This document shows, piece after piece, positions 12,842-30,580 of a stretch of DNA of 64,000 bases. The stretch is from Bacteroidia bacterium (GTDB taxonomy: Bacteria > Bacteroidota > Bacteroidia > 2-12-FULL-35-15). The notes below the pieces were generated by a model. It ran no database searches. It was not told the DNA's origin and saw only the letters and a program-made list of their open reading frames with translations. Each line of letters starts with the position of its first letter. Position 1 is the first letter of the stretch. The stretch is from contig JAEUTU010000124.1 in assembly GCA_016786925.1 (NCBI GenBank), forward strand, positions 800 through 64,799. The letters are read 5' to 3'. Both the position numbers and the translations under genes were made by a program.

Positions 12842-15800
12842 ATGGGACTACGACCAAATTTTTTATTCAAACTACTTTTTCTTCTTGCCTTTTCTACTAG
12901 TGCAATTGCCCAAAACAGTGCATTAGCAAAGTGGACAGCCAAGTACGATAAAACCAAAGCGTTCATTGAAAATAAGGGGCAGTTTCAGGTAAACGGTCTG
13001 GAAAACTACAACACTCCAGTTTTGTATGCAATGGATCATGGTGCTACAAAGATCTATTTCACCCAAAAAGGTTTAGTGTATAGCTTCTTAAAAGTTTGGC
13101 AAAAAGAAAATGATAAAGAAGAAAGAGAGCTACGCAAACAAAAGGGATTTGCTAGCGCTGAAGAGTTTAAAGCTTTTGAAGACGAGGGAAGAAAAGTAGA
13201 GCATGAAACAGATGTTATACCCATGTTTTTTGACGGAGCCAATGCTGGTGCACAAATTGTTGCAGAACAAGAAACAAAGGAATACCACTCCTACTCTTAC
13301 AAGGAAAACGGAAAAAGCAAAGATGTTTCCAATGTAAAAGCATTCAAAAAGATCACTTACAAGAACATTTATCCGAACATTGACATTGAATATACTTTCC
13401 ACCCTGAGTCGGGTATCAAATATGCTATTATCCTTCATCCGGGTGCTGACGCATCCATGATCAAGATGAAGTATGACAAAAGTATTTCTATCAACAAAAA
13501 CAACTTGCTTGTTCCAACTAAATTTGGTGACATCATTGACCATGCACCTCTAACTTTTTATGCCGACAATCACAATCAAGTTGTGAAATCATCTTTTATC
13601 ATTAAAGGAAAAACAGCAAGTTTTAAACTTGGAAAATACGATCATACAAAAACATTAATCATTGACCCTTGGACACAAACCCCTGCCTTTGCTACTGCTT
13701 GGGACTGTGTTTGGGAGTGCGAAAAAGACGGGGCGGGCAACGTGTATATCATTGGTGGTGTTACACCAATGCAACTGATTAAATATAATTCAACAGGTGT
13801 ATTACAATGGACCTACAACACCCCTTATGACACATCTGCTTGGCTCGGAACGTTCGCAACAGATAACCTGGGGAACTCATATGTTACTCAAGGCTCGGTT
13901 GCCGCAATTGTTAAAGTAAACAATGCCGGAGGTGTTGTTTGGAATAATGGTAGTCCCGGTGGAATTTTCACCTCCACAGAATTCTGGAATATTTCATTCA
14001 ACTGTGACCAATCTAAATTGGTTATTGGAGGAACTGGCGGCTTCCTCCCTCCTCTACCCTATATTTACGATGTTGATGTAAACAGTGGAAACATCACCGC
14101 AAGTGTTCAGGTAACTGGCGGACAGCTTTTCCCAACTCAGGAGGTTCGGTCGATCACAGCCTGCGGTAACGGAAAGTTTGCCTATCTGACACATGACTCG
14201 ATCGGCTATATTTCTCAGAATTTTACATTGTGTCCTAATGGACAAACAGCAGCATTTCATACGACTAACTCCTATGGCCTTAGCTATAAATGTGAAAATT
14301 GGAGAAAGGACAACTCCGGGATCATGGCTATCAGATATTACAATGGCTTTTTATACACTCACAAGGGTAACCAATTGCACAAACGCGATTTCGCTACCGG
14401 AGCAATTATAGCTACAGCAACAATTACCGGTGGTGGATTTGGAACAGGACAAGTGCAAAATAGCGGATTAGACATTGATGCATCCGGTAATGTGTATGCC
14501 GGATCGGGTAATGCAGTTATTAAATTCGACTCTAATCTAAACCAGCTAACATCCGTTGCTACAACCTATAAAGTATATGATGTGCATGTTTTAAGTGGAG
14601 GCGATGTTGTGATCTGTGGAACAACGGGAACATCAGGAACAACAGGCGCAAGAACAGGAACGGTACAAGTTGTAAATATGACCGCAGCTGCACCACTTTC
14701 ATTAACTTGTTGTGATGCTACCATTTGTAACCCAGGTGTTTTATGTTCGAGCGCTGCACCGGTTACATTAACCGTTGCAACTCCCGGTGGAACGTTCAGT
14801 GGTCCTGGCGTTAACCCATCAACCGGTGTATTTAACCCTGCAACAGCTGGCGTTGGAACCCATACGATCACTTACACACTTGCGTGTGGAAACGAAAGTA
14901 TTTCAATTGTTGTTTCTCCCTGTGCTACCCTAAATGTTTGTCAAGAAACAAATGGGACATTAACTGTTTCAAATGGTGTTGCACCTTACACTTGGCAGTA
15001 TTTTACTCCTGCATCAAGTTCTCCAATAACAAATTCTGCAACGTGTACTGCTTGCGGTGGAAGTTGGACACCAATAGTGAACATCTGTTTAGTGGGTGGT
15101 TTGCCTGCTACAACTTGCAACACTCCGGCATCGTGGACAACTTTCTCTACAAACACAAACTCAGGAACCCTGCCTCCGTCATTCCCTTCACAACCAATTC
15201 AAGTGACCGACAACGCAGGAACAGTAACAACAATAACAACCCTAACGGGTATTCAACCTTGTAACGCAACAGTTTGTCCTACGATCACCGTTACCGGAAC
15301 ACCAACAAACATTCAATGTGTTGGCCAAACCGGTTCAGCAACGGTTAGCGCCAGCGGCAGCACCACTTCTTACACCTACAATTGGATGCCGGGAAGTTTA
15401 ACCGGGGCTTCACAAACGGGATTGGCAGCAGGAACATACACCGTTACTGCTACAGATGGCAATAGCTGTACCGGAACAACAACAATAACCATTACTCAGC
15501 CCGCAAGTGCTGTTTCTGTTTCTATATCAAGTACCACCCCAACAGCGTGTTCAAGCGCAACGGGTGCAGCAACAGCTTCTGGTTCGGGCGGAACAGGCGC
15601 CATCACCTATAACTGGATGCCAGGAAATATTTCTGGAGCAACGATCAGCAATCAGGCAGCAGGAACGTATACGGTTACTGCTACCGATGCAAACGGATGT
15701 ACCGCAACAACAACAGCAACGATCACTCAAGCAGCAAATACTCTTGCCGCTTCTATTTCAGGAACAACACCTGCTACTTGCGGATCAAACAATGGATCAG

Positions 15801-17392
15801 CCACCGCCACCTCAACCGGTGGAGTTGGTACTGTTACTTATTCCTGGATGCCGGGAAGTTTAACAGGAGCAACCATCAGCAATCAAGCAGCAGGAACATA
15901 TACGGTTACGGCCACAGATGGTAATGGTTGTACATCAACAGCCACCGCTACAATTGCTAACAGTGGCGGACCAACAGCAAGCATTGCTTCACAAACAAAT
16001 ATCCTTTGCTTCGGCCAAAACACCGGAGGAGCAACAGCCGCCTCAACAGGGGGAACAGGAACAGTAACCTACACCTGGATGCCGGGAAGCTTGACGGGAG
16101 CAACACAAACAGGGCTGGCTGCAGGAACATATACCGTTACAGCATCTGATGGAGGAAGCTGTCCGGGCACAACAACTGTAACGATCACACAACCAACAAG
16201 TGCGGTTTCTGTTTCCATTACAGCAACCACACCAACAGCCTGCGGAAGTAACAATGGTGCTGCAACAGCAAGCGCTAGTGGTGGCACAGGAACAATCACG
16301 TATAATTGGATGCCGGGAAGTTTATCTGGTGCAAGCATTAGCAACCAGGCTGCAGGAACATATACCGTTACGGCAACTGACGCAAACGGATGCACTGCAA
16401 CAACAACCGCGACAATTGCTAGTAGTGGTGGACCAAGTGTTTCTATTACATCCCAAACAAATATTTTATGTAACGGAGGAAACAACGGAAGCGCAACTGC
16501 AAATGCTACGGGTGGAACGGGAACAATTACCTACTCTTGGAGTGGTGGCGCAGGAAGCAACCCTACGGCAAGTAATTTATCTGCCGGAACCTATACGGTA
16601 ACCGCTACCGATGGAACAGGCTGCTCTAACTCAACCACCGTAACGATCACCCAACCGTCCGCAATTGTTGTTTCTGTAAGCACCACACCTGCAACGTGTG
16701 GCAATAGCGATGGAACAGCAACGGTTAATGCCAGTGGCGGAAATGGGGTATTAAGTCCGGTTTGGAATACAAGCGCTACCAATAGCTCTATTACCGGTCT
16801 TTCTGCAGGAACATATTCTGTTACAATAACCGATGCAAGCGGTTGTACCGCAACAAGTAGTGGAAGTGTTGGAGTAACGGGAAGTTTAAGTGGTGTAAGC
16901 GCAGGAACAGATGTAACTATCCTTTCCGGAACAAACACGGTTTTAAATGGAACTGTGCCAACTGGAGCTACGATCTTATGGACGCCTTCAACAGGATTAA
17001 GTTGTACTACATGTGAGGACCCTACGGCTTCTCCGACACAAACAACAGTGTATGTAATTACTGCAAATCAAAACGGTTGTAGTGGTAGCGACACCGTAAT
17101 CGTTTTTGTGGATGTTGTTTGCGGAGAACTTTTTGTGCCGAATGCATTTTCTCCAAACGAAGATGGGCAGAATGATTTCCTATATGTAATGGGGAATTGC
17201 ATCACCAATTTAGAGTTCTTCGTTTACGACCGCTGGGGCGAAAAAGTGTTTGAAACAAAAGATGCTGCTTATGGCTGGGATGGAACATACAGAGGAAAGA
17301 AAATGGATGCTGCTGTTTTTGTTTATTATTTAACAGCAACAGTTAATGGACAAGAAGTAACAAAACAAGGAAACATTACATTAATTAAATAA
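12842..17392 (+). CDS. SprB-repeat cell-surface adhesin with T9SS type-B (gliding-motility, CHU_C) C-terminal sorting domain
   Basis: 1516 aa with a signal peptide. About 7 tandem 77-aa SprB-type repeats are present (W/N-W-M-P-G-S-L-T-G-A ... AAGTYTVTATD ... C). The C-terminus VPNAFSPNEDGQNDFLYV ... WDRWGEKVFE matches the type-B CTD. A PorP/SprF gene follows immediately. Confidence 0.85.
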   Translation: MGLRPNFLFKLLFLLAFSTSAIAQNSALAKWTAKYDKTKAFIENKGQFQVNGLENYNTPVLYAMDHGATKIYFTQKGLVYSFLKVWQKENDKEERELRKQKGFASAEEFKAFEDEGRKVEHETDVIPMFFDGANAGAQIVAEQETKEYHSYSYKENGKSKDVSNVKAFKKITYKNIYPNIDIEYTFHPESGIKYAIILHPGADASMIKMKYDKSISINKNNLLVPTKFGDIIDHAPLTFYADNHNQVVKSSFIIKGKTASFKLGKYDHTKTLIIDPWTQTPAFATAWDCVWECEKDGAGNVYIIGGVTPMQLIKYNSTGVLQWTYNTPYDTSAWLGTFATDNLGNSYVTQGSVAAIVKVNNAGGVVWNNGSPGGIFTSTEFWNISFNCDQSKLVIGGTGGFLPPLPYIYDVDVNSGNITASVQVTGGQLFPTQEVRSITACGNGKFAYLTHDSIGYISQNFTLCPNGQTAAFHTTNSYGLSYKCENWRKDNSGIMAIRYYNGFLYTHKGNQLHKRDFATGAIIATATITGGGFGTGQVQNSGLDIDASGNVYAGSGNAVIKFDSNLNQLTSVATTYKVYDVHVLSGGDVVICGTTGTSGTTGARTGTVQVVNMTAAAPLSLTCCDATICNPGVLCSSAAPVTLTVATPGGTFSGPGVNPSTGVFNPATAGVGTHTITYTLACGNESISIVVSPCATLNVCQETNGTLTVSNGVAPYTWQYFTPASSSPITNSATCTACGGSWTPIVNICLVGGLPATTCNTPASWTTFSTNTNSGTLPPSFPSQPIQVTDNAGTVTTITTLTGIQPCNATVCPTITVTGTPTNIQCVGQTGSATVSASGSTTSYTYNWMPGSLTGASQTGLAAGTYTVTATDGNSCTGTTTITITQPASAVSVSISSTTPTACSSATGAATASGSGGTGAITYNWMPGNISGATISNQAAGTYTVTATDANGCTATTTATITQAANTLAASISGTTPATCGSNNGSATATSTGGVGTVTYSWMPGSLTGATISNQAAGTYTVTATDGNGCTSTATATIANSGGPTASIASQTNILCFGQNTGGATAASTGGTGTVTYTWMPGSLTGATQTGLAAGTYTVTASDGGSCPGTTTVTITQPTSAVSVSITATTPTACGSNNGAATASASGGTGTITYNWMPGSLSGASISNQAAGTYTVTATDANGCTATTTATIASSGGPSVSITSQTNILCNGGNNGSATANATGGTGTITYSWSGGAGSNPTASNLSAGTYTVTATDGTGCSNSTTVTITQPSAIVVSVSTTPATCGNSDGTATVNASGGNGVLSPVWNTSATNSSITGLSAGTYSVTITDASGCTATSSGSVGVTGSLSGVSAGTDVTILSGTNTVLNGTVPTGATILWTPSTGLSCTTCEDPTASPTQTTVYVITANQNGCSGSDTVIVFVDVVCGELFVPNAFSPNEDGQNDFLYVMGNCITNLEFFVYDRWGEKVFETKDAAYGWDGTYRGKKMDAAVFVYYLTATVNGQEVTKQGNITLIK
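15290..16930 (+). repeat. Tandem array of ~231-bp (77-codon) in-frame repeats inside the SprB-like gene
   Basis: The NWMPGSL-encoding motif recurs at 15378, 15609, 15842, 16074, 16303 and 16535, a period of 229-233 bp. Confidence 0.85.
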
Positions 17393-17525
17393 TCATTTAA
17401 AACTTACACTCAACATGAAAACTACACAAATGATCTGCGTTGTTATTTTTTAATCAACGCTGAAAAGAAAAACTACTACTAAACTTTTTAAGATGTACAA
17501 TTTACACCTTGCAAATTTTTCAACG

Positions 17526-18551
17526 ATGAAACGGCTGACCTTTGCCATTGCGCTTTCTGCGATCTTTTTTTCAGCGGGAGCTCAGGACATTCACTTTTCT
17601 CAATTTGACGAAACGCCCGTGCAGTTAAACCCTGCTAACGTTGGTGTTCATCATGAATTAAGAGGGATTTTGAATTTTAAAAATCAATGGCAAAGTATTG
17701 GTTCTCCCTACAGAACATATGCCTTCTCTTTTGATACAAGATTGTTAAAAGAGAAAAAACACCACTTGGGTATTGGCATTGATTTTTTTAGTGACAAAGC
17801 CGGAGATGCGGCACTCGGTTCTAATCAAGTGAATCTTTCTGTTTCGGGAATTATTAATGTGAACGACAAAAGCATTTTCTCTGGAGGCATCATGGCCGGT
17901 TTCGGACAAAGAAGCATGAATGCATCAAAACTTACCTGGGGCAACCAGTATAACGGCATGACCTATGATGCCAATGCACCGACAGGAGAAAACAATTTAC
18001 CCGGAAGCTTCACCATGTTTGATTTAGGTGCCGGATTACAATACAGCTACGGAACAGACGAAGCATATATTTCTGCAAACAATGCGCGCAAAGTAAACAT
18101 TGGTGTTGCCATTTTTCATCCTCACCGCCCAGCTTACTCTTTTTATGGTGCTCCCGAAAGATTAAATATGAAGGTCGTTTTAAACGGTAACGCGTCTATT
18201 GGTATGCCTAACAGCAACCTCGTATTAAAACCTTCTTACATCGTTTTCATGCAAGGTGCTGCTACGGAAGTTAATCCCGGAATGACCTTTCAATATATTC
18301 TTCAAGAAGGATCAAAATATACGGGATTAAAAAAGTCCTCCGCATTTTCTTTGGGGGCATATTATCGTTTTCAAGATGCCTTTATTGCTATCGCAAAATT
18401 TGAATATTCAAACTATTCTATTGGATTTAGTTATGATGTCAATCTATCTAAATTACGTGTTGCTTCCTCTTCAAGAGGAGGCTTTGAGATCTCATTACGA
18501 TGGGTGTATCCATCCATGTTTGGGAACAAGCACTTTAAATCTCGTATTTAA
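17526..18551 (+). CDS. PorP/SprF family type IX secretion system membrane protein
   Basis: A signal peptide is followed by the QDIHFSQFDETPVQLNPANVG signature of PorP/SprF. The gene lies directly downstream of a type-B CTD cargo. The MKRL start at 17526 is preferred over 17493. Confidence 0.8.
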   Translation: MKRLTFAIALSAIFFSAGAQDIHFSQFDETPVQLNPANVGVHHELRGILNFKNQWQSIGSPYRTYAFSFDTRLLKEKKHHLGIGIDFFSDKAGDAALGSNQVNLSVSGIINVNDKSIFSGGIMAGFGQRSMNASKLTWGNQYNGMTYDANAPTGENNLPGSFTMFDLGAGLQYSYGTDEAYISANNARKVNIGVAIFHPHRPAYSFYGAPERLNMKVVLNGNASIGMPNSNLVLKPSYIVFMQGAATEVNPGMTFQYILQEGSKYTGLKKSSAFSLGAYYRFQDAFIAIAKFEYSNYSIGFSYDVNLSKLRVASSSRGGFEISLRWVYPSMFGNKHFKSRI

Positions 18552-20731: not shown

Positions 20732-23700
20732 ATGAATAAATTTACTTTTATGCGTTCTATTGCATTAGGCTCCGGGCTTGTGTTTGGAGTTGTTAATGCA
20801 AACGCACAATTTGGGTTTACCAACTCAAATTCCAGATTAACTCCCACTACTATGCGTAGTGGAAATTGTATAACAGTTGTTGATGTTAACAACGATGGGC
20901 TTGACGATATCGTTCGTATGGACGACTCCAGAGACCTATGGGTTGATCTTCAACAAAGAAATGGAAATTTCACTTCTTACAATGTAGGAAATGTTTCAGG
21001 CTCTAATGTTTGGGGTATGGCTGTTGCCGACTTTGACCACAATGGATGGAAAGATGTTGTAACCGGACCAAATGGCTCTGTTTATTTAGCAAAACTTTCC
21101 TGGAACGGTTCTGCCGTTGTCAAAACACAATCTACGCTTTCTAATTCTAACTTCTTTACTCAAAACATCACTTGTGGTGACTTTAATAATGATGGTTGGG
21201 ATGATGTGTATGTTTGTGATGATAACGCATATGCTAAAGTATACATGAATGATGGTGCAGGAAACCTACAATTCTTGGCACACTCTACAACATCCATGAC
21301 TATTGGAACGGGATCAAAAAGCTTTACTATTCAAACGGGCCTAGCCTTCACTGTTGGTCAAACCGTTAAAGTTGGTTACGATGGAACAAAATACATGACA
21401 GGAACGGTTACTTCCTACAACTCCGGAACAGGAGCAATGGTGGTGAATGTAACTTCAGTTGTGGGGTCCGGAACATTCCCAACATGGTCTGTTCATTCAA
21501 ATATTGTATTTAACCACCAACTGAGCACAACAACCTATGGTGGCGACCCTGCCGACTCTGGTAATTACGGAAGTGCTTGGGTTGATTTTGACAATGATGG
21601 CGACTTAGATTTTTATGTGGCTCATTGTCGTCAGGCATCTACAAGTGTTACCGACCTAAGAAGAAAAGACCGTTTGTTTGTAAATGATGGGAACGGAAAC
21701 TTCACAGACATGGCTTCTGCACATGGAATTGAGGCTGGTGACTACAATCAGACCTGGACAGGAAGCTTTGGTGATATTGACAATGATGGCGACTTTGATC
21801 TTTTGGTTACTAACCATGATATTGCCAGCCAGATCTTTGAAAATGATGGAACAGGGAACTATACCGACATTACTCCTACAACCGGATTCTCAACAACCGG
21901 AGCGGGAACTCAACCAATCGAGTCCTATTTTGAAGACTTTGATAACGATGGTTTTGTAGACATCTTTGTTACCGGCTCTAATTTTGTTCTTTACAAAAAC
22001 AACGGAAACAAAACATTCTCTTTGGTAGGAAATGCAGGAATGTCACAAACCGGAGGAATGGTTTCATTTGCTGTTGGCGATTTGAACCATGATGGTTTCT
22101 CTGATATATTTGCTTCTTATGGCGATATCTACAACAGTCCTTCAGCCTCTACTAATGATGTTCTTTATTTGAACAACAAAAACGCAAATCACTTTATTAC
22201 ATTTGCTTTAACAGGAACCGTTAGTAATCACGATGCTATTGGAGCGCGCGTTACCATCTTTGGTGCTTTTGGAACCCAAATTCGTGAAGTTCGTGCCGGA
22301 GAAAGCTATGGTACCGTTAACTCATTCAACCTACACTTTGGTTTAGGAGCAAACACAACAATTGACTCTGCACGAATCGATTGGCCATCAGGCAATACAA
22401 CCAACTTCGGTTCTTTAAATGCTGATCAATTTGTATCTGTTGTTGAGGGCACTTGCAGCATCACAAACAATACAATTCCCGGCCCATACAATTTATGTAC
22501 AGGTCAGTCATTAACATTAACTGCTAATGGCGGCTTTGCTTCTTACAACTGGAATACAGGGGCTACAACACAGTCTGTTACAACAAGCACAACAGGAAAC
22601 TTTAATGTTATGGTAACAAACGGTGCTTGTTCAAATGTTTCTCCTTCAGTTAGTGTTCAGCTAAACCCTGACGAAACACCAAGCGTAACACAATCGGGCA
22701 GCAACTCTTGTCAAGGAACAATTACACTTACAAGCTCTACTGCTGCTGGATATACTTGGTCCGGACCGGGTGGATTCACTTCAACATCACAATCTATTAA
22801 TCCTCCTGTTTCAGGTAATTATTCCGTTACAATTCAAGGGTTTTGTGCTACATTCACTTCTCCGGCATACAATGCTGTAGTTAGCGCAGCTCCGGCACCA
22901 ACAGGTGTTGACCAATCTAGCCCAACACCAACATCATTCAACCTAAACGCTACCGGCACCAACTCATCAAACATTTCTTGGTACGACCAAGCAACAGGTG
23001 GAACATTATTAGGAACCGGTGCAAACTATACTACTCCTGTGATCAGCACAACAACAAATTATTTTGTTGAAGAAAGCTTCACTTATGCAAGCGCTCCACA
23101 AACAACTGGACAGCTGTACCACACAGGAGCAAGCAACTATAACACCAGTTTGAATGGCGGTGTTGATTTTACCGTAATAGCACCATGTACATTAAACACT
23201 GTTAAGGTTTATTCTTCAACTGCTGGAGCACGTAAAATTTTACTTAAAAATTCAGTTGGGGCTAATATTGACTCGGTTATTGTTAATATTCCTATAGACA
23301 CAAGCGTTGTTACTTTAAATCTTGCTTTAACTCCAGGAACAGGCTACCGCTTAACAACAGACCAAACAACCAATCAAACTAATTTTGGTGGTATTTCGCC
23401 TGCTCTAAGAAGAAGTCAATCTGGGGCTGCTTATCCATACTCTTTAAGTGGTTTAATTAACATCACAAATGGTTGGACAGGATCCGCTTCTACAACCAAC
23501 GCTTACTATTACTTCTACGACTGGAAAGTACAAGGAGCACCAATGACATGTATCAGCGATAGAGATACTGTAACTGCTGCTATCAACACTGCAACAGGAA
23601 TAGACAATGCATCATTAAACAACGCAATCGCTATTTATCCTAACCCGGCAAATGCTTCCGTTAATGTTAAATTTGAGTCTGCACTTGCTGCCGGTGCTCA

Positions 23701-23872
23701 GATCAACATTACTGATATTGCTGGTAGAGTGATCTTGGCAAACAATGTTCAAAATGTGAACCAAGGACAAATTGTTTCATTAAACATTGAAAACATTAAT
23801 GCAGGAACTTACTTCATAACTGTAAGATCTGAAAACAAAAACACGGTTCAAAAACTGATCATTACCAAATAA
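20732..23872 (+). CDS. CRTAC1-family protein (FG-GAP/VCBS repeats + ASPIC/UnbV domain) with T9SS C-terminal sorting domain
   Basis: Repeated D.DGD.D motifs are present (VDFDNDGDLDFYVAH, GDIDNDGDFDLLVTNH). An UnbV_ASPIC-like segment (IGARVTIFGAFGTQIREVRAGESYGT) follows, and the C-terminus AIYPNPANASVNV ... GTYFITVRS is a Por CTD. Confidence 0.75.
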   Translation: MNKFTFMRSIALGSGLVFGVVNANAQFGFTNSNSRLTPTTMRSGNCITVVDVNNDGLDDIVRMDDSRDLWVDLQQRNGNFTSYNVGNVSGSNVWGMAVADFDHNGWKDVVTGPNGSVYLAKLSWNGSAVVKTQSTLSNSNFFTQNITCGDFNNDGWDDVYVCDDNAYAKVYMNDGAGNLQFLAHSTTSMTIGTGSKSFTIQTGLAFTVGQTVKVGYDGTKYMTGTVTSYNSGTGAMVVNVTSVVGSGTFPTWSVHSNIVFNHQLSTTTYGGDPADSGNYGSAWVDFDNDGDLDFYVAHCRQASTSVTDLRRKDRLFVNDGNGNFTDMASAHGIEAGDYNQTWTGSFGDIDNDGDFDLLVTNHDIASQIFENDGTGNYTDITPTTGFSTTGAGTQPIESYFEDFDNDGFVDIFVTGSNFVLYKNNGNKTFSLVGNAGMSQTGGMVSFAVGDLNHDGFSDIFASYGDIYNSPSASTNDVLYLNNKNANHFITFALTGTVSNHDAIGARVTIFGAFGTQIREVRAGESYGTVNSFNLHFGLGANTTIDSARIDWPSGNTTNFGSLNADQFVSVVEGTCSITNNTIPGPYNLCTGQSLTLTANGGFASYNWNTGATTQSVTTSTTGNFNVMVTNGACSNVSPSVSVQLNPDETPSVTQSGSNSCQGTITLTSSTAAGYTWSGPGGFTSTSQSINPPVSGNYSVTIQGFCATFTSPAYNAVVSAAPAPTGVDQSSPTPTSFNLNATGTNSSNISWYDQATGGTLLGTGANYTTPVISTTTNYFVEESFTYASAPQTTGQLYHTGASNYNTSLNGGVDFTVIAPCTLNTVKVYSSTAGARKILLKNSVGANIDSVIVNIPIDTSVVTLNLALTPGTGYRLTTDQTTNQTNFGGISPALRRSQSGAAYPYSLSGLINITNGWTGSASTTNAYYYFYDWKVQGAPMTCISDRDTVTAAINTATGIDNASLNNAIAIYPNPANASVNVKFESALAAGAQINITDIAGRVILANNVQNVNQGQIVSLNIENINAGTYFITVRSENKNTVQKLIITK

Positions 23873-23929: not shown

Positions 23930-23975
23930 TACCATTCCGATATTTCACTTATTTTTGATCTATAAATCCATAATT

Positions 23976-25139
23976 ATGAAAACGCTTAAAAAAATTGGCA
24001 AATGGTTTTTGATCATGCTAGTTGTGCTAAACCTTGCTATTCTCATTTCCGGGAAAACCTATTTATACAAGGGTATTGCCAACACCTATTTAAAGGGGCG
24101 ATCTGGTCCAAGCATTGATGAATTTGGTATTTTCGAGAATAGAGATGTGGCCGCTGGAAACCACCAAGCTTGGAAAAAATCAACAAAATATAACAGCGCC
24201 AAAATACCAGCCTCACTTGAAAAAAATTTTTCTGATCTAGGAACCGTTGCTTTTGTGGTGATCAAAAACGACTCTCTTATCCACGAACAATATTGGGATG
24301 GATATAACGAAGACTCTCATAGCAACTCCTTTTCAATGGCAAAAACATTTGTTGGAATTTTGATCGGTGCAGCAATTGACGAAGGAAAGATCAAAAGCTT
24401 AGACCAACCCATAGGCGATTTTCTGCCCGAGTTTCGAGAAGGAAACAATAGCAAAATAACGATCAAACATCTTCTTACAATGAGCTCCGGGATCAATTTT
24501 GACGAAGATTATGTAAACCCTCTTGCTTATCCCGCACAGGCGTATTATGGAACAGAGATCAAAGAACTAACATTGGGTTACGAAGCGCTAGAGGAACCGG
24601 GAAAAACATTTAAATACCTTAGTGGTAATTCTGAACTATTAGGAATGATCATAGAAAAGGCTACAGGAAAAACGCTAAGCGAATATATGTCCGAAAAGCT
24701 GTGGAAGCCGCTCGGAGCAAAAAACGCAGCAAAATGGAGCCTTGATCATAAAGATGGAATGGAAAAGGCCTATTGTTGTTTTAACTCCAATGCGCCCGAC
24801 TTTGCAAGAATTGGGCAGTTGTATTTGGATTCCGGCAAATGGAATGGAAATCAATTGATCAACCAAGAATTTGTAATGAACTCCATTATTCCAGCTGATC
24901 TGGCAGATGAAGGCGGAAGAAATCAACGCTACGGTTATGCGTGGTGGCTGATCCCTGATTACAAAATAAAAGGCATTTACTATGCACGAGGCATTCTTGG
25001 CCAATATATTCTGTGTATTCCGGAAAAAGATATGGTGGTTGTACGTTTAGGCAAAAAGAGAGAAAAGCCAAGCGGCAACGAAACGCCAAAAGATGTAATG
25101 TATTATTTGGATGCAGCCATCGAAATGTATGGCAAATAA
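23976..25139 (+). CDS. Serine hydrolase, beta-lactamase (class C / PBP-like) family
   Basis: An N-terminal TM helix is followed by the S-x-x-K motif (FSMAKTF) and downstream YxN / KTG-like elements. Confidence 0.65.
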   Translation: MKTLKKIGKWFLIMLVVLNLAILISGKTYLYKGIANTYLKGRSGPSIDEFGIFENRDVAAGNHQAWKKSTKYNSAKIPASLEKNFSDLGTVAFVVIKNDSLIHEQYWDGYNEDSHSNSFSMAKTFVGILIGAAIDEGKIKSLDQPIGDFLPEFREGNNSKITIKHLLTMSSGINFDEDYVNPLAYPAQAYYGTEIKELTLGYEALEEPGKTFKYLSGNSELLGMIIEKATGKTLSEYMSEKLWKPLGAKNAAKWSLDHKDGMEKAYCCFNSNAPDFARIGQLYLDSGKWNGNQLINQEFVMNSIIPADLADEGGRNQRYGYAWWLIPDYKIKGIYYARGILGQYILCIPEKDMVVVRLGKKREKPSGNETPKDVMYYLDAAIEMYGK

Positions 25140-26066: not shown

Positions 26067-26135
26067 ACCTTTTTATCCCGATATAGTCGTTATGGCCAGT
26101 GTTTTTTTTAGTTTCTTTTTTGAACAAAAACAAAT

Positions 26136-26684
26136 TTGAATTTCGAAGAGATATATACTGCTCATAGCAAAATGGTTTTTAACCTTGCGCTTCAATATGT
26201 ACAAAACATTGAAGATGCGGAGGAAATAACACAAGATGTTTTTGTTTCTATTCATCAATCTTATTCCGGCTTCAAAGAAGAGTCCTCCATCAAAACCTGG
26301 ATATACCGGATAACGATCAATAAATCGCTTGATCATATCCGCTCCAAAAAAAGGAAAAAAAGATTCGCCTTCTTTACCAGTCTTTTTTTTGAAGATAACA
26401 ATACGCTAAAGCACGAGCCCTCCTCGTTCGACCACCCGGGTGTTCTGATGGAAGACAAAGAGTCTATCAAGGCTATTTTTCAAAAAATAAATGAGCTGCC
26501 CGACAATCAGAAAACAGCGCTCATCTTACACAAAATAGAACAAAAAACACAGGCCGAAGTGGGAGAGATAATGAACCTAAGCACCAAAGCGGTTGAATCG
26601 CTTATTCAACGAGCAAAGGCTGGTCTATTAAAAAAAATAGACAACACCGAGGGGAATGATTCAAAAAATCGTCTAAACCAATAA
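26136..26684 (+). CDS. RNA polymerase ECF-type sigma-70 factor
   Basis: Sigma70 region 2 (FNLALQYVQNIEDAEEITQDVFV, WIYRITIN) and region 4 (ELPDNQKTALILHKIEQKTQAEVGEIMNLSTKAVESLIQRA) are recognisable. The candidate start at 26136 is TTG. An anti-sigma gene follows. Confidence 0.85.
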   Translation: MNFEEIYTAHSKMVFNLALQYVQNIEDAEEITQDVFVSIHQSYSGFKEESSIKTWIYRITINKSLDHIRSKKRKKRFAFFTSLFFEDNNTLKHEPSSFDHPGVLMEDKESIKAIFQKINELPDNQKTALILHKIEQKTQAEVGEIMNLSTKAVESLIQRAKAGLLKKIDNTEGNDSKNRLNQ

Positions 26685-26691
26685 TTGAGAC

Positions 26692-26946
26692 ATGAATATA
26701 GATGATCTACATAAAATAAAAGCCGTTGACGTTTCTCCTTTTTTATATACGAGAATACAACAACGCATAAAGGACAGCGCAACAGACCTTGTCCCAAAAA
26801 AGCTTGTTTGGACCGTTAGCCTTTCTATGTTTGCAATTCTTTTTGTTAATGCCGGAGCCATTGTTTGGGTGGCAAAAAAGAATCATAAAACAAATACTGT
26901 TGTTGAATCAATGGGTTTGATGCCCGACAATGAATTATACAAATGA
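26692..26946 (+). CDS. Putative anti-sigma factor (small single-pass membrane protein)
   Basis: 84 aa with one TM helix (VWTVSLSMFAILFVNAGAIVWVA), lying directly after the ECF sigma and overlapping the next gene by 4 nt. Confidence 0.5.
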   Translation: MNIDDLHKIKAVDVSPFLYTRIQQRIKDSATDLVPKKLVWTVSLSMFAILFVNAGAIVWVAKKNHKTNTVVESMGLMPDNELYK

Positions 26947-27407
26947 ACTCTAAAAACCTATTAACAATAACCACCATCGGCCTTTTCATAACAAATATTG
27001 TTTTGTTGTGGTTCCTGGTATCGGGCCGTCCACAGCATCATGGGCCGGCAGGAGGCGGAGGACCCAGAAATATCATTATTGAAAAACTGAAGTTTGACAA
27101 GGCACAACAAGTCGCGTTTGAGTCTTTGATTCAGAAACACAGACAAGATATCGATCGTTCGCAAGCAAAAATGATCGAAATAAAAAACAAGCTTTATACA
27201 ACACTTACCAATACCGACAATGTTGTTAAAGACTCTTTGGTTATTAAGCTTGGTAACCTTCAAAAAGAAATTGAAACGATCCACTACAATCACTTTGTAG
27301 ATATCAAAAACCTTTGTAAACCGGAACAAAAGCCACTTTTCGAGGAGCTTAGTCATGAAATAGCAAGGCTGTTTGCGCCTCCACATCCACCTAAACACAA
27401 ACCCTAG
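26943..27407 (+). CDS. Periplasmic Spy/CpxP-like (LTxxQ-motif) heavy-metal/envelope-stress protein
   Basis: An N-terminal TM/signal region is followed by a helical protein with repeated xxxQ motifs (KFDKAQQ, ESLIQKHRQ) and a His/Pro-rich tail (PPHPPKHKP). Confidence 0.5.
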   Translation: MNSKNLLTITTIGLFITNIVLLWFLVSGRPQHHGPAGGGGPRNIIIEKLKFDKAQQVAFESLIQKHRQDIDRSQAKMIEIKNKLYTTLTNTDNVVKDSLVIKLGNLQKEIETIHYNHFVDIKNLCKPEQKPLFEELSHEIARLFAPPHPPKHKP

Positions 27408-27409
27408 TC

Positions 27410-28108
27410 TTGTTAAGGCTCTTTTTTGCTTTCATAAACGTCATTGCTTTTATCTCCTTTGCTTCTGCTCAAAAGGGGGGCGCAGTTTCTATTACCTTCC
27501 AGCACCAGTATAATGGTAAAATGTTTAACGTATCAGACTCCGGGGCAACAATAAACACAACAAGCGATCTCAAGATAAACGTTTTAAAATATTATGTCTC
27601 TCACATTCGATTGTATTCCAATGGAACGTTAGTGGCTCAGGATCCCGCTTTAGCACACCTGATCGATGCCTCAGACACCAGCTCTAGCACCTGCATAATT
27701 CCCGTTCACAAAAATGTTGTTTATGATGAAATCCGGTTTGATCTTGGAATAGATAGTACAACCAATGTTTCCGGGGTTCTTGGTGGCGACCTGGATCCGA
27801 CAAAAGGCATGTATTGGACCTGGCAAAGTGGATATATTAATTTCAAGCTGGAAGGAAATGCCCAACAATGTACAAACTCAAAGAAAGAATTCATTTTTCA
27901 CATTGGCGGTTACGCCCATCCATACGGCTGTATCCGTGAGGTCTCATTGAAAACAGGTGGGGCCTCAAAAGCCATTGTTGTGCTGGAGCTTAAAACCCTT
28001 TTCGACCACATTCAACTCGACAAAGAAGCAAACATTATGTCACCTTCTCAAAGTGCTGTTTCCTTTTCAAAACTTCTACAAAAGAGCTTTATTGTTAAAG
28101 AACCATGA
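27410..28108 (+). CDS. MbnP-family periplasmic copper-binding protein
   Basis: A signal peptide is followed by the pattern KYYVSHIRLY ... MYWTWQSGYINFKLEG ... HIGGY, which I recognise as MbnP. It is immediately followed by, and overlaps, a di-haem peroxidase gene, the usual MbnH partner. Confidence 0.6.
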   Translation: MLRLFFAFINVIAFISFASAQKGGAVSITFQHQYNGKMFNVSDSGATINTTSDLKINVLKYYVSHIRLYSNGTLVAQDPALAHLIDASDTSSSTCIIPVHKNVVYDEIRFDLGIDSTTNVSGVLGGDLDPTKGMYWTWQSGYINFKLEGNAQQCTNSKKEFIFHIGGYAHPYGCIREVSLKTGGASKAIVVLELKTLFDHIQLDKEANIMSPSQSAVSFSKLLQKSFIVKEP

Positions 28109-29139
28109 AAACCAAAGTCTTTGTGTTCCTTTTTTTATTGATCGTTTTAGCGGGGTTTCACACCGTTAACGACTCTCTTTTTGAAGTACCGAAAGGCTGG
28201 CCCAAACCTCAGCATGACTTTCTAAAAAAACCTTTGTTAAAAGAAACTGTTGAGCTTGGAAGGGCTTTGTTTTATGATCAAATTCTATCCAGAAATAATA
28301 GCGTTTCCTGCGCCAGCTGTCACTCTCAATATACAGCATTCACACATGTTGACCATGCACTAAGCCACGGTATAGACGACCGGATCGGGAAAAGAAATTC
28401 TCCGGCTCTTATGAACCTTGCTTGGCAGAAGTCATTCATGTGGGACGGGGCTGTCAACCATATTGAGGTACAAGCCCTTGCTCCCATTAGCAATCCACTA
28501 GAAATGGATGAGAACATTTCCTCGGTAGTAAAAAAATTAAACGCTACTGTTCAATATCAAAAGCTTTTCTACAAAGCCTTTGGCGACTCAGCCATCACAG
28601 GAGAAAGAACGTTAAAGGCGATCTCACAATTCATGCTAACGCTTGTGTCATCCAATTCGAAATACGATAGCGTTATGAGAAAAGAAACTCATTTCAACGC
28701 TCAAGAAAACAGAGGCTACAACTTATTCAAAAAACACTGTTCTTCTTGTCATACAGAACCGTTATTTACAAATGATCGTTTTGAAAACAACGGACTCCCT
28801 GTTGATACAAGCCTTATGGATAAAGGGCGGTATGCGATCACACAAAATCCCAAAGACTCTCTTTTGTTTAAAGTGCCGACACTTCGAAACATTGAATTCT
28901 CTTATCCCTATATGCATGATGGGAGATTTAAAAAATTATCGGATGTACTAAAACACTATAGCAACGGGATAACACACAGCCCAACGCTTTCTAAAGAGCT
29001 GTTGGGCCCAATAGTTATGACATCCGAAGAACGCGTAGATATCATTGCTTTTCTGTTAACATTAACAGACAAAACATTTCTTTTTGACAAGCGCTTTTCA
29101 TACCCCAAAACTTTTTTCTCTGATCCTGCGAAGGATTAA
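28105..29139 (+). CDS. Di-haem cytochrome c peroxidase (MbnH-like)
   Basis: Two CxxCH motifs (CASCH, CSSCH) sit in the CCP/MauG family arrangement, with the conserved PTLRNI and Y.HDG motifs. Confidence 0.8.
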   Translation: MKTKVFVFLFLLIVLAGFHTVNDSLFEVPKGWPKPQHDFLKKPLLKETVELGRALFYDQILSRNNSVSCASCHSQYTAFTHVDHALSHGIDDRIGKRNSPALMNLAWQKSFMWDGAVNHIEVQALAPISNPLEMDENISSVVKKLNATVQYQKLFYKAFGDSAITGERTLKAISQFMLTLVSSNSKYDSVMRKETHFNAQENRGYNLFKKHCSSCHTEPLFTNDRFENNGLPVDTSLMDKGRYAITQNPKDSLLFKVPTLRNIEFSYPYMHDGRFKKLSDVLKHYSNGITHSPTLSKELLGPIVMTSEERVDIIAFLLTLTDKTFLFDKRFSYPKTFFSDPAKD

Positions 29140-29180
29140 TAAAAGAGAATCGTCTATACACTAAAACCAACATTATAAAA

Positions 29181-30536
29181 ATGAAATTAAAAGGACTTTT
29201 CTTGGCTGCCATGATCACGAACGCTTTGGCTCAGGCGCAAACCAACCCCGCAATTACCGGGTGGATGCAAAACACCACCAATATCATGGGTCGCCACTAT
29301 GTAAGCGGCAACTCCACACCAATCAACGACAATGTATTGGCGAATGTTCAAACCGTTCAATATTCAACAAGCTGGGTATATGTTTCAACGAAGGGAATTC
29401 CGGCTTATATAACAGGGCCTTTTTTAGATGGAAACCCATCTTTGGCAAGCAACCAGAATGCGATCTTTAAGTTTCCTTTGAATCCGGTTCAAAACACAGG
29501 AACGCCAACAGCAACAACAATGGGCAACATTGGTGTTTTTGTGAATGGTGTTGCTCTTTTTGATTATCGTGATGGTGTTTCCTGGAAAAACTCAACCGGT
29601 GCACTTGCCGGAGGACCGCTTGGTGGAACCGGTGATGGGGTTTGGAATAGAGATGCTGTGGTAGCAGAAAAACCGGGATTTGACTGTTCAAAGGGTCATC
29701 CGGCAATGGGAAATTACCATCATCACCAAAATCCAAGCGCTTACAAGCTGGATCAGAACGTGATTTCCACCATTTGTAATCTATACGATTCTGATGGACT
29801 TTACGTGATCGATAGCACTCAACACTCGCCACTTATTGGATTTGCCTATGATGGATTTCCGATATATGGTGCCTATGGATACAAGAATGCAGACGGAACC
29901 GGTGGGATCGTGAGGATGAAATCGAGCTACAGTTTAAGAAGCATATCTGTTAGAACACACTATTTTGATGGCACAGATGTAACCGATGGACCAGCTGTTA
30001 ATGGCACATACCCACTGGGGTATTTCAAAGAAGATTATCAATTCACTTCGCCAACTGCCTCTGATTATTTAGATGAGCACAACGGTCGTTTTTGTGTTAC
30101 TCCCGAGTATCCAGCAGGTATCTATTGCTATTTTGCTACGGTTGATGCCAATTGGAATTCTGCATATCCGTATGCTGTCGGGCCAACATTTTATGGCGTA
30201 AAAACAGCTGCTAAGGTCACATCTATTTCGGAAAGCACAACAACCTACACCGCTCCTGCAACGAGTATTTCTGAGGCTACAAACGATTCATTTGAAGTAA
30301 ATGTTTATCCTAATCCGGCCAATGATTTTATTGCAGTTCAGATCAACGGAATGAACAAAGAAAATTTACTTGTTGAACTTTTTGATGTTACAGGAAAATT
30401 GGTTCAAAGCAATTATTTGTATCAAGGTACAACCATTGCTTTCTTTGATACACAGCGACTTTACAGCGGAGTTTATTTTATTAAACTACATGGATCGGCA
30501 GGAGTTTGCAGCCGGAAAGTAATTATCCAAAAATAA
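29181..30536 (+). CDS. YHYH-domain protein with T9SS C-terminal sorting domain
   Basis: The HPAMGNYHHHQNPSAY and YDGFPIYGAYGY motifs indicate a YHYH family protein. The C-terminus VYPNPANDFIAVQ ... GVYFIKL matches the Por CTD. Confidence 0.7.
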   Translation: MKLKGLFLAAMITNALAQAQTNPAITGWMQNTTNIMGRHYVSGNSTPINDNVLANVQTVQYSTSWVYVSTKGIPAYITGPFLDGNPSLASNQNAIFKFPLNPVQNTGTPTATTMGNIGVFVNGVALFDYRDGVSWKNSTGALAGGPLGGTGDGVWNRDAVVAEKPGFDCSKGHPAMGNYHHHQNPSAYKLDQNVISTICNLYDSDGLYVIDSTQHSPLIGFAYDGFPIYGAYGYKNADGTGGIVRMKSSYSLRSISVRTHYFDGTDVTDGPAVNGTYPLGYFKEDYQFTSPTASDYLDEHNGRFCVTPEYPAGIYCYFATVDANWNSAYPYAVGPTFYGVKTAAKVTSISESTTTYTAPATSISEATNDSFEVNVYPNPANDFIAVQINGMNKENLLVELFDVTGKLVQSNYLYQGTTIAFFDTQRLYSGVYFIKLHGSAGVCSRKVIIQK

Positions 30537-30550
30537 AGCAAGATCAAAAA

Positions 30551-30580
30551 CAAAAGAGCGTCAAATGACGCTCTTTTTTA
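30551..30580. terminator. Bidirectional rho-independent terminator between convergent genes
   Basis: AGAGCGTC-AAAT-GACGCTCT forms a hairpin flanked by A-rich 5' and TTTTTT 3' tracts. Confidence 0.7.

Follow-up and report, generated by a model that had tools for sequence, protein, structure and literature searches.

Organization of the operon

The window, i.e. the whole stretch of 64,000 nucleotides (nt) analysed here (Bacteroidia bacterium, GTDB lineage 2-12-FULL-35-15; assembly GCA_016786925.1, contig JAEUTU010000124.1, positions 800 to 64,799 of the forward strand), carries a six-gene operon that encodes an extracytoplasmic function (ECF) sigma factor, a small membrane protein, a membrane-anchored helical protein, an MbnP-family protein, an MbnH-like di-haem enzyme (the last two together referred to as MbnPH) and a YHYH-domain protein with a sorting domain of the type IX secretion system (T9SS). 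The last three genes, MbnP-MbnH-YHYH(T9SS), are the core of an envelope operon that is found in Bacteroidota with a T9SS and in related bacteria, and the first three genes lie upstream of this core in about half of the loci. The module may respond to metal and supply copper to exported proteins. Its features are as follows:

26067..26135, + strand: presumed promoter region, a 69-nt intergenic gap 3' of the preceding gene and upstream of the sigma gene
26136..26684, + strand: ECF-type sigma-70 factor, 182 amino acids (aa), TTG start (Pfam and NCBIfam hidden Markov models, HMMs)
26692..26946, + strand: small single-pass membrane protein, 84 aa, presumed anti-sigma factor with CnrY-like architecture (position, topology)
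26943..27407, + strand: membrane-anchored periplasmic all-helical protein, 154 aa, presumed metal sensor (CnrX/NccX-like predicted fold)
27410..28108, + strand: MbnP-family periplasmic protein, 232 aa, TTG start, signal peptide (PF20243)
28105..29139, + strand: MauG-type di-haem enzyme, MbnH-like, 344 aa, signal peptide (CCP_MauG, TIGR04039)
29181..30536, + strand: YHYH-domain protein with a type-A T9SS sorting domain, 451 aa (PF14240, PF18962, TIGR04183); signal peptide and YHYH domain at about 29181-30260, C-terminal domain at about 30303-30533
30552..30577, unstranded: bidirectional intrinsic-terminator-like hairpin closing the operon, AAAAGAGCGTCAaatGACGCTCTTTT, with T runs on both sides

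A preliminary description of this DNA had reported six co-directional and tightly packed genes at 26136-30536, and the open reading frames (ORFs) agree with it: all six are on the + strand, with intergenic gaps, in gene order, of 7, -4 (ATGA overlap), 2, -4 (ATGA overlap) and 41 nt. The hairpin has a perfect 11-bp stem and is located between the convergent YHYH and DUF218 genes. Protein families were assigned by Pfam and NCBIfam HMM scans against curated cutoffs, and structure models, predicted from database homologues, were compared with the PDB using Foldseek; two database proteins, P0001 (MbnP) and P0391, are 100% identical to window proteins. According to hydrophobicity and signal analysis, every product except the sigma factor, which has no hydrophobic segments, is predicted to be an envelope protein. 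No Rfam families or tRNAs were found in the operon region or in the whole window.

The MbnP protein and the MbnH-like enzyme

The fourth gene encodes a protein of the MbnP family, an identity that the preliminary description had itself offered for refutation by HMM search and that was upheld by Pfam (PF20243, 136.3 bits for a cutoff of 27, profile positions 2-189 of 189); the same domain is carried by all 120 listed MbnP homologues. The protein has a signal-peptide-like N-terminus, and its only two tryptophans lie in the motif GMYW136TW138QSGY, the WTW of which is invariant in 77/77 homologues. In MbnP of Methylosinus, one of the WxW tryptophans is converted to kynurenine and the copper site is completed by a His, a Met and a water molecule; this kynurenine formation depends on MbnH and enables copper binding by MbnP, and it has been demonstrated experimentally only for the Methylosinus MbnPH pair (PMC11951088). 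In the present family, H164 and M134 are conserved in 77/77 homologues and M210 in 75/77, and they are regarded as candidate copper ligands only, since the Methylosinus MbnP structure (7L6G) was detected in the PDB neither with the single MbnP sequence nor with a profile of the clade, even at E <= 10. TTG is the start codon of the MbnP gene, as it is of the sigma gene. In the public record of the identical MbnP (P0001, 195 aa), translation begins at an ATG inside the gene, so that the signal peptide is missing; the longer, TTG-start form, which includes window positions 27410-27520, was retained because it is supported by the lengths of the homologues.

The stop codon of the MbnP gene overlaps the start of the fifth gene, whose product was correctly recognized beforehand as an MbnH-like di-haem enzyme. 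Indeed, (i) it matches CCP_MauG (PF03150, 188.5 bits), (ii) its best NCBIfam match is the MbnH-type model TIGR04039, ahead of MauG (TIGR03791, 196.6 bits), and (iii) it aligns over its full length with MbnH (PDB 6e1c, E 3e-38). Both haem motifs, C69ASCH73 and C212SSCH216, are invariant (76/76), as is Y285 in the motif KHYSNG (76/76), which is aligned with the Tyr of the 6e1c motif IYSEG. From the sequence, we infer that Y285 is the axial ligand of the E haem, as in MauG-type enzymes; it is this His-Tyr ligation that separates MauG-type enzymes from the peroxide-scavenging bacterial cytochrome c peroxidases (bCcPs) (PMC11892367). Furthermore, W113 (motif FMWDG) aligns with the conserved inter-haem Trp of the Nitrosomonas bCcP and of MbnH. 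Such an inter-haem Trp is thought to carry electrons between both haems. At this position (window ~28441-28443) a Trp is found in 62/76 relatives and an Arg in 14/76, while Tyr285 stays invariant.

Conservation of the module across genomes

When one genome per species was scanned, relatives of this MbnP clade turned up in at least 505 loci, the 80 best of which were used for counting neighbourhoods. The 80 loci belong to Bacteroidota (Chitinophagales, Saprospiraceae, Flavobacteriales, Sphingobacteriales, Cytophagales), Kapaibacteria and Ignavibacteria. MbnH adjoins MbnP in 76/77 loci, and an orthologue of the YHYH protein is present in 51 of the 60 loci with adequate flanks, being adjacent in 46 of them, either directly after MbnH (40 loci) or directly before MbnP (6 loci). 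The association of a T9SS-displayed YHYH protein with MbnPH, previously described as unusual, is thus the norm in this MbnP clade. The sigma factor is encoded upstream in 37/72 loci and the sensor in 38/72.

Dozens of species-level genomes contain the same genes in the same order, with protein identities of 25-95%; since this gene order recurs while the flanking genes differ, the arrangement is far beyond what chance would produce. Furthermore, the proximity of MbnP, MbnH and YHYH has been kept while their order changed, as the YHYH gene is found on either side of the pair. YHYH-T9SS paralogues of lower identity (47-54%) do not lie beside MbnPH, so the linkage is specific to one YHYH orthologue group. 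When all ORFs were clustered, no further family exceeded 10 of the 80 loci, and the related loci do not consistently encode a transporter for uptake or efflux near the module, which argues against a simple import or export system.

Some loci deviate from this organization. On a metagenomic contig (L087:3276-6057), a seven-gene operon contains two tandem YHYH-T9SS copies, the second of which is 57% identical to the window protein. Another locus (L090:2554-4311) harbours a degenerate module with a sigma factor, an 83-aa protein, a sensor and a truncated MbnP of 143 aa, followed by neither MbnH nor YHYH. In a third (L004:9775-11134, on the record that also contains L006), YHYH is represented by two overlapping ORFs that were not called as a gene, which could reflect a frameshift, a pseudogene or an assembly error.

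The YHYH-T9SS protein

The sixth gene encodes a protein with a YHYH domain (PF14240, 198.8 bits) and a T9SS sorting domain (Por_Secre_tail PF18962, 53.8 bits, residues 375-449; TIGR04183, 53.7 bits for a cutoff of 23), in accordance with its initial assignment. With its signal-like N-terminus (MKLKGLFLAAMITNALAQAQ), it is predicted from the sequence to be a T9SS type-A cargo protein. It had also been called His/Tyr-rich: it is indeed rich in Tyr (6.9%), but not in His (2.0%), although five His are invariant. The YHYH family is uncharacterized and widespread: clustering at 50% identity yields about 2,300 groups, which include bacterial, phage and giant-virus proteins.

Among the operon-linked YHYH orthologues, H173, H180, H182 and H215 are each conserved in 54/54 sequences and H300 in 53/54; the motif Y179-H180-H181-H182 is conserved, with H181 in 52/54. 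C169, C199, C305, D224 and D298 are invariant or nearly so, and two Trp (W135, W155) and many Tyr are invariant. In total, 128 of the 451 positions are at least 97% identical to the window residue, and the YHYH orthologues share 56-73% identity where the MbnP proteins share 36-47%.

The AlphaFold model of the protein (predicted local distance difference test, pLDDT, 92.6; predicted TM-score, pTM, 0.90) has no fold match in the PDB at E <= 0.001, MopE and CorA included. It matches cyanophage structural/baseplate proteins and giant-virus YHYH proteins, with E-values down to 3.5e-19. The protein shares with these phage tail/baseplate and giant-virus proteins the PF14240 domain and its conserved His cluster and acidic residues, but, unlike them, it is cellular, stands alone and carries a T9SS tail, and it belongs to an orthologue group of at least 56% identity that is tied specifically to MbnPH.

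The domain also occurs in other combinations. Out of 37 multidomain YHYH representatives, four are fused with sulfatases (P0310, P0324, P0382, P0390), two with arylsulfotransferases (P0281, P0318), six with FG-GAP repeats and one with a beta-lactamase-fold hydrolase; in one protein (P0304), YHYH is fused with both FG-GAP and beta-lactamase/BTRD1 domains. The only function published so far is a prediction for phage YHYH domains, namely a tail-associated hydrolase with a zinc site made of three His and one Asp (PMC7824862). On this basis, the protein could be a zinc-dependent extracellular hydrolase acting on polysaccharide- or peptidoglycan-like substrates and only loosely linked to MbnPH, which would be a co-regulated system of envelope redox or metal homeostasis. 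This would be in line with a fold common to phage baseplate and structural proteins and with the sulfatase, arylsulfotransferase, beta-lactamase-fold and adhesin-type fusions. It appears improbable, however, since a linkage of 85% that survives changes of gene order and concerns one YHYH orthologue group only points to a specific functional dependence.

MauG modifies pre-methylamine dehydrogenase, and by analogy the YHYH protein might itself be the substrate of MbnH. A protein-derived cofactor would then be installed in the periplasm before export, with MbnP perhaps acting as copper donor or adaptor. MauG-type enzymes are known to modify partner proteins (PMC11892367, PMC11951088), the YHYH orthologues have the invariant W135, W155 and Tyr residues that such a modification could use, and the three genes stay close together although their order varies. 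On the other hand, the intact WxW motif of MbnP and its translational coupling suffice to explain the presence of MbnH, and the invariance of W155 extends to YHYH relatives without linkage to MbnPH, so that a role of YHYH as MbnH substrate is considered quite unlikely.

The sigma factor, the small membrane protein and the presumed sensor

The first gene encodes an ECF sigma factor, as initially proposed, with matches to Sigma70_r2 (60.9 bits), Sigma70_r4_2 (48.7 bits) and TIGR02937 (sigma70-ECF, 96.5 bits for a cutoff of 42.9). Its TTG start (MNFEEIY) agrees with the consensus of the homologues, and its nearest PDB sequences are generic ECF sigma factors (SigW, RpoE). The second gene encodes an 84-aa protein without any Pfam or NCBIfam match, with a single hydrophobic segment (residues 38-62) and, among its homologues, a conserved cytoplasmic N-terminal motif (PPFLxTRIQQKI) and a conserved periplasmic C-terminal motif (MNLxxxNxLY). 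In 35 related loci, its gene separates that of the sigma factor from that of the sensor, and from this position and topology the protein is presumed to be an anti-sigma factor.

The product of the third gene had been described as a CpxP/Spy-like LTxxQ metal-stress protein, a view that is not supported by the present analyses. The protein has an N-terminal hydrophobic anchor (residues 5-29) and, in its AlphaFold model (pLDDT 85.9), four periplasmic helices. CnrX and NccX structures account for all of the top 16 Foldseek matches of the model in the PDB (probability 1.00, target TM-score 0.61-0.75). The root-mean-square deviation is about 3-5 A with the CnrX chains and 12.4 A with the NccX chain, and the E-value is only about 1e-2, which is usual in fold searches with small helical proteins. 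The top 50 matches include neither Spy nor CpxP, and ZraP is ranked 35th. A sequence search of the PDB retrieved neither CnrX, Spy nor ZraP, so that the sensor was resolved by the fold search only. Likewise, the LTXXQ family of Pfam is matched neither by the window sensor nor by any of 22 homologues (0/22), the sensor carrying only motif echoes of LTxxQ proteins (LxFDxxQ, LCxPxQ). Its match to Metal_resist is below threshold (20.5 bits vs 29.2), and this family is matched by 5/22 homologues (best E 4e-6), with a strong match in the homologue of locus L087.

Residues Q55, H66, Q107, H117, F118, C125 and Q129 of the sensor are invariant and H114 is present in at least 90% of the homologues, while the first periplasmic helix has no His. 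All sensor homologues, including those retrieved independently, are encoded in this module, in every context examined. Given the CnrX/NccX fold, the membrane anchor and the lack of an LTXXQ match, the first three genes look like a CnrYXH-type metal-signalling unit rather than a sigma factor accompanied by a chaperone, an assignment that relies on the architecture and on the predicted fold of the sensor and not on orthology of the sigma factor. CnrX-type sensors release their own ECF sigma factor upon metal binding.

The unit resembles CnrYXH/NccYXH of Cupriavidus metallidurans in combining an ECF sigma factor, a small single-pass protein and an anchored helical sensor, encoded beside their presumed targets. 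It differs from CnrYXH in its Bacteroidota lineage and in that no resistance-nodulation-division (RND) efflux pump is controlled. An ECF promoter element (AAACC-N(14-18)-GTC/CGT) considered 5' of the sigma gene was not accepted: it is found in 4-5 of 38 upstream regions, where about 1 is expected, and is confined to close relatives.

Additional T9SS cargo in related loci

In eight genomes, a multicopper oxidase with a T9SS tail is encoded inside the cluster, at varying positions (L016, 8710-10455; L008, L050, L051, L022, L039, L082, L079). These proteins have Cu-oxidase_3/_2 domains, an HWHG motif and a Por_Secre_tail domain. Their recruitment is an indication of a copper link that is independent of MbnPH, and it indicates that the clients of the system are T9SS cargo proteins. 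Furthermore, a sulfatase homologue is encoded in nine clusters (L011:3440-5053, L016:10452-12035, L008, L039, L066, L082, L079, L020, L081); five of the nine sulfatases have a CxPxR (Cys-type) motif, and the Por_Secre_tail domain was confirmed by Pfam on a representative (L011:3440-5053). The gene order is MbnP-MbnH-multicopper oxidase-sulfatase-YHYH in L016 and L008, and multicopper oxidase-sulfatase-YHYH-YHYH-MbnP-MbnH in L079.

It cannot be stated as a general rule that MbnPH serves any T9SS cargo. This generalization was rejected on the basis of nine loci without adjacent YHYH, in which the genes following MbnH are miscellaneous (encoding, e.g., a P-type ATPase, a pentapeptide-repeat protein, a peptidyl-prolyl isomerase, a glycoside hydrolase of family GH30 and CotH) and none of the products has a T9SS tail according to Pfam (0/9). 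In L020, a tenth locus without adjacent YHYH, the sulfatase homologue directly follows MbnH.

The multicopper oxidases also bear on another explanation, namely that the module serves only for detoxification or sequestration, in a Pco/Cop-like manner: the sensor would respond to an excess of copper, MbnP would sequester Cu(I) in the periplasm, the surface-exposed YHYH protein would bind external copper and the multicopper oxidase, where encoded, would oxidise it, without any transfer of metal to an enzyme. CnrX and NccX, which the sensor resembles in fold, belong to the cnr and ncc metal-resistance determinants and are activated by metal binding; a periplasmic binder combined with an oxidase and an outer-surface protein recalls CopA/CopC/CopB; multicopper oxidases are found in eight loci; and no importer is encoded. 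Nevertheless, the related loci have no efflux pump (P1B ATPase, RND or CusF) linked to the module, the sensor is missing from half of them, and the YHYH protein is conserved like an enzyme and belongs to a family present in many contexts unrelated to copper (phage baseplates, sulfatase fusions). A role restricted to detoxification is therefore regarded as rather unlikely, while deserving more weight than the loose hydrolase linkage or the YHYH-substrate explanation.

Proposed function of the module

The preferred interpretation, which we hold tentatively and at somewhat less than an even chance, is that the operon is a metal-responsive module in which MbnP, matured by MbnH, handles periplasmic copper and hands it to T9SS cargo before export. 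This hand-off is favoured because the YHYH protein is conserved like an enzyme, because a T9SS cuproenzyme has been repeatedly recruited and because no importer or efflux pump is linked. The copper theme of the preliminary description is plausible, as the WxW motif of MbnP is intact, MbnH has a MauG-type Tyr and a T9SS multicopper oxidase is encoded in eight related genomes.

The module could work as follows. The CnrX-like sensor would bind a periplasmic metal, most likely copper, for which the invariant His66, His117 and Cys125 are candidate ligands. The signal would pass via the 84-aa anti-sigma factor, whereby the sigma factor would be freed and the operon transcribed, as the fold and the architecture suggest. 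MbnH would then oxidise one Trp of the WTW motif of MbnP to kynurenine, creating a Cu(I) site, as is suggested by the intact motifs and the translational coupling of the two genes. MbnP would bind periplasmic copper and work with the neighbouring T9SS cargo, i.e. the YHYH protein and, in some genomes, the multicopper oxidase. T9SS cargo crosses the inner membrane by the Sec pathway and is exported from the periplasm, and MbnP could metallate it there if the cargo folds before export. The net effect would be both the removal of Cu(I) from the periplasm and the equipment of metalloproteins of the cell surface.

Several observations weigh against this interpretation. With regard to MbnPH, both proteins score below the cutoffs of their equivalog models (MbnP: TIGR04052, MbnP_like_WxW, 37.9 bits for a cutoff of 140, profile positions 2-162 of 257; MbnH: TIGR04039, 218.3 bits for a cutoff of 362.85), and a profile built from this MbnP clade of Bacteroidota detects no PDB sequence at all. 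With regard to the regulatory genes, CnrH (4cxf) is only the ninth PDB match of the sigma factor (6.5e-9), which does not place the latter in the CnrH group; the sigma gene comes first, which is not the order of CnrYXH; and about half of the loci are devoid of the regulatory trio. Furthermore, the metal ligands of CnrX are His42, His46, Glu63, His119 and Met123; of this set, the positions of His42 and His46 do not appear to be conserved in the sensor, in which the conserved residues are instead His66, His114, His117 and Cys125. With regard to the cargo, the zinc-hydrolase proposal mentioned above assigns another metal to the YHYH site, and the recurrent fusion or adjacency of YHYH to sulfatases and arylsulfotransferases is not explained by a copper role. 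Multicopper oxidases are also classic detoxification enzymes, so their presence does not separate supply from detoxification. Finally, a hand-off presupposes folding of the T9SS cargo in the periplasm before its export, and nothing was found on the site of this folding or on the final location of the cargo.

A further step would be to consider the YHYH domain, with its five invariant His and a confidently predicted fold that has no solved relative, as a new family of copper-dependent extracellular enzymes, which would receive their metal in the periplasm from the kynurenine-bearing MbnP before export by the T9SS. This is an unlikely extension of the copper hand-off. If it were true, MbnPH would be a metallochaperone system for secreted cuproproteins and not an accessory of methanobactin, and the association with sulfatases, arylsulfotransferases and laccase-like multicopper oxidases would point to the oxidative processing of sulfated or phenolic surface substrates.

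Comparison with known copper systems

The closest known counterpart of the core is the MbnP/MbnH pair of Methylosinus trichosporium OB3b (7L6G, 6E1C), in which a gene for a WxW-containing MbnP likewise directly precedes and overlaps the gene for the MauG-type enzyme; the window enzyme shares with the OB3b MbnH its two haem motifs, the Tyr of the E haem and the Trp between the haems. The operon differs from the methanobactin operons of OB3b in lacking methanobactin genes and a consistently present MbnT TonB-dependent transporter, and from the OB3b MbnPH pair in its T9SS YHYH partner, its CnrX-type trio, its scores below the equivalog level and an MbnP with two Trp in total.

The module can also be compared with MopE/SACCP of Methylococcus capsulatus and CorA/CorB of Methylomicrobium album, where the gene of a surface protein is accompanied by that of a MauG-like di-haem enzyme, a combination predicted here from the genes. 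The MopE and CorA systems are copper-related operons with kynurenine-based copper sites (PMC3912023, PMC3423442, PMC3621798). Following this model, the YHYH protein could capture copper at the cell surface for uptake, scavenging the metal and passing it inward to MbnP. Surface or secreted copper proteins are indeed co-transcribed with MauG-like enzymes in the case of CorA/CorB (PMC3912023) and MopE (PMC3423442; reviewed in PMC3621798), and YHYH bears a T9SS sorting domain. However, the WxW motif for the modified Trp sits in MbnP (PMC11951088), so that the kynurenine candidate is here the periplasmic protein, whereas the presumed surface protein would be exported by the T9SS and is unrelated in fold to MopE and CorA. 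A TonB-dependent-like barrel was found in only 6/80 loci and no outer-membrane transporter is consistently linked, while isolated Methylosinus MbnPH pairs lie near MbnT-like TonB-dependent transporters (PMC3621798). Moreover, regulation of the present module looks metal-activated, and a CnrX-type switch fits poorly with a capture system, which would be expected to be repressed by copper. Copper capture for uptake is thus judged to have little likelihood.

The individual parts, i.e. the MbnPH pair, the CnrX-type ECF switch and T9SS cargo, are known, and their combination with YHYH is undescribed in the literature searched: this clade joins MbnPH with a CnrX-type sensor and an ECF sigma factor, T9SS cargo and YHYH, which were not found together there, and no paper was found in it that ties YHYH/PF14240 to copper, MbnP or the T9SS. 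MbnP/MbnH pairs occur far beyond methanobactin operons, and their biological role there is unresolved (PMC3621798, PMC11951088). If the link seen here is functional, it would give MbnPH a testable role, namely the handling of copper for exported proteins, would offer a first experimental handle on YHYH and would illustrate one way in which metal cofactors might reach T9SS cargo. The module is also present in cultured organisms, among them Aurantibacillus circumpalustris (CP121197.1, around 3.296-3.313 Mb) and Parasediminibacterium sp. JCM 36343, which makes experiments feasible.

Genomic surroundings

Just upstream (5') of the operon, the window encodes a 1046-aa FG-GAP/ASPIC protein with a T9SS tail (20732-23872) and a protein of the beta-lactamase family (23955-25139). 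The FG-GAP and beta-lactamase domain types of these two genes are also found fused to YHYH elsewhere, and a YHYH paralogue in locus L085 likewise adjoins an FG-GAP protein with a T9SS tail. The G+C content is 0.44-0.46 at positions 14001-18000, compared with about 0.34-0.41 in the rest of the window.

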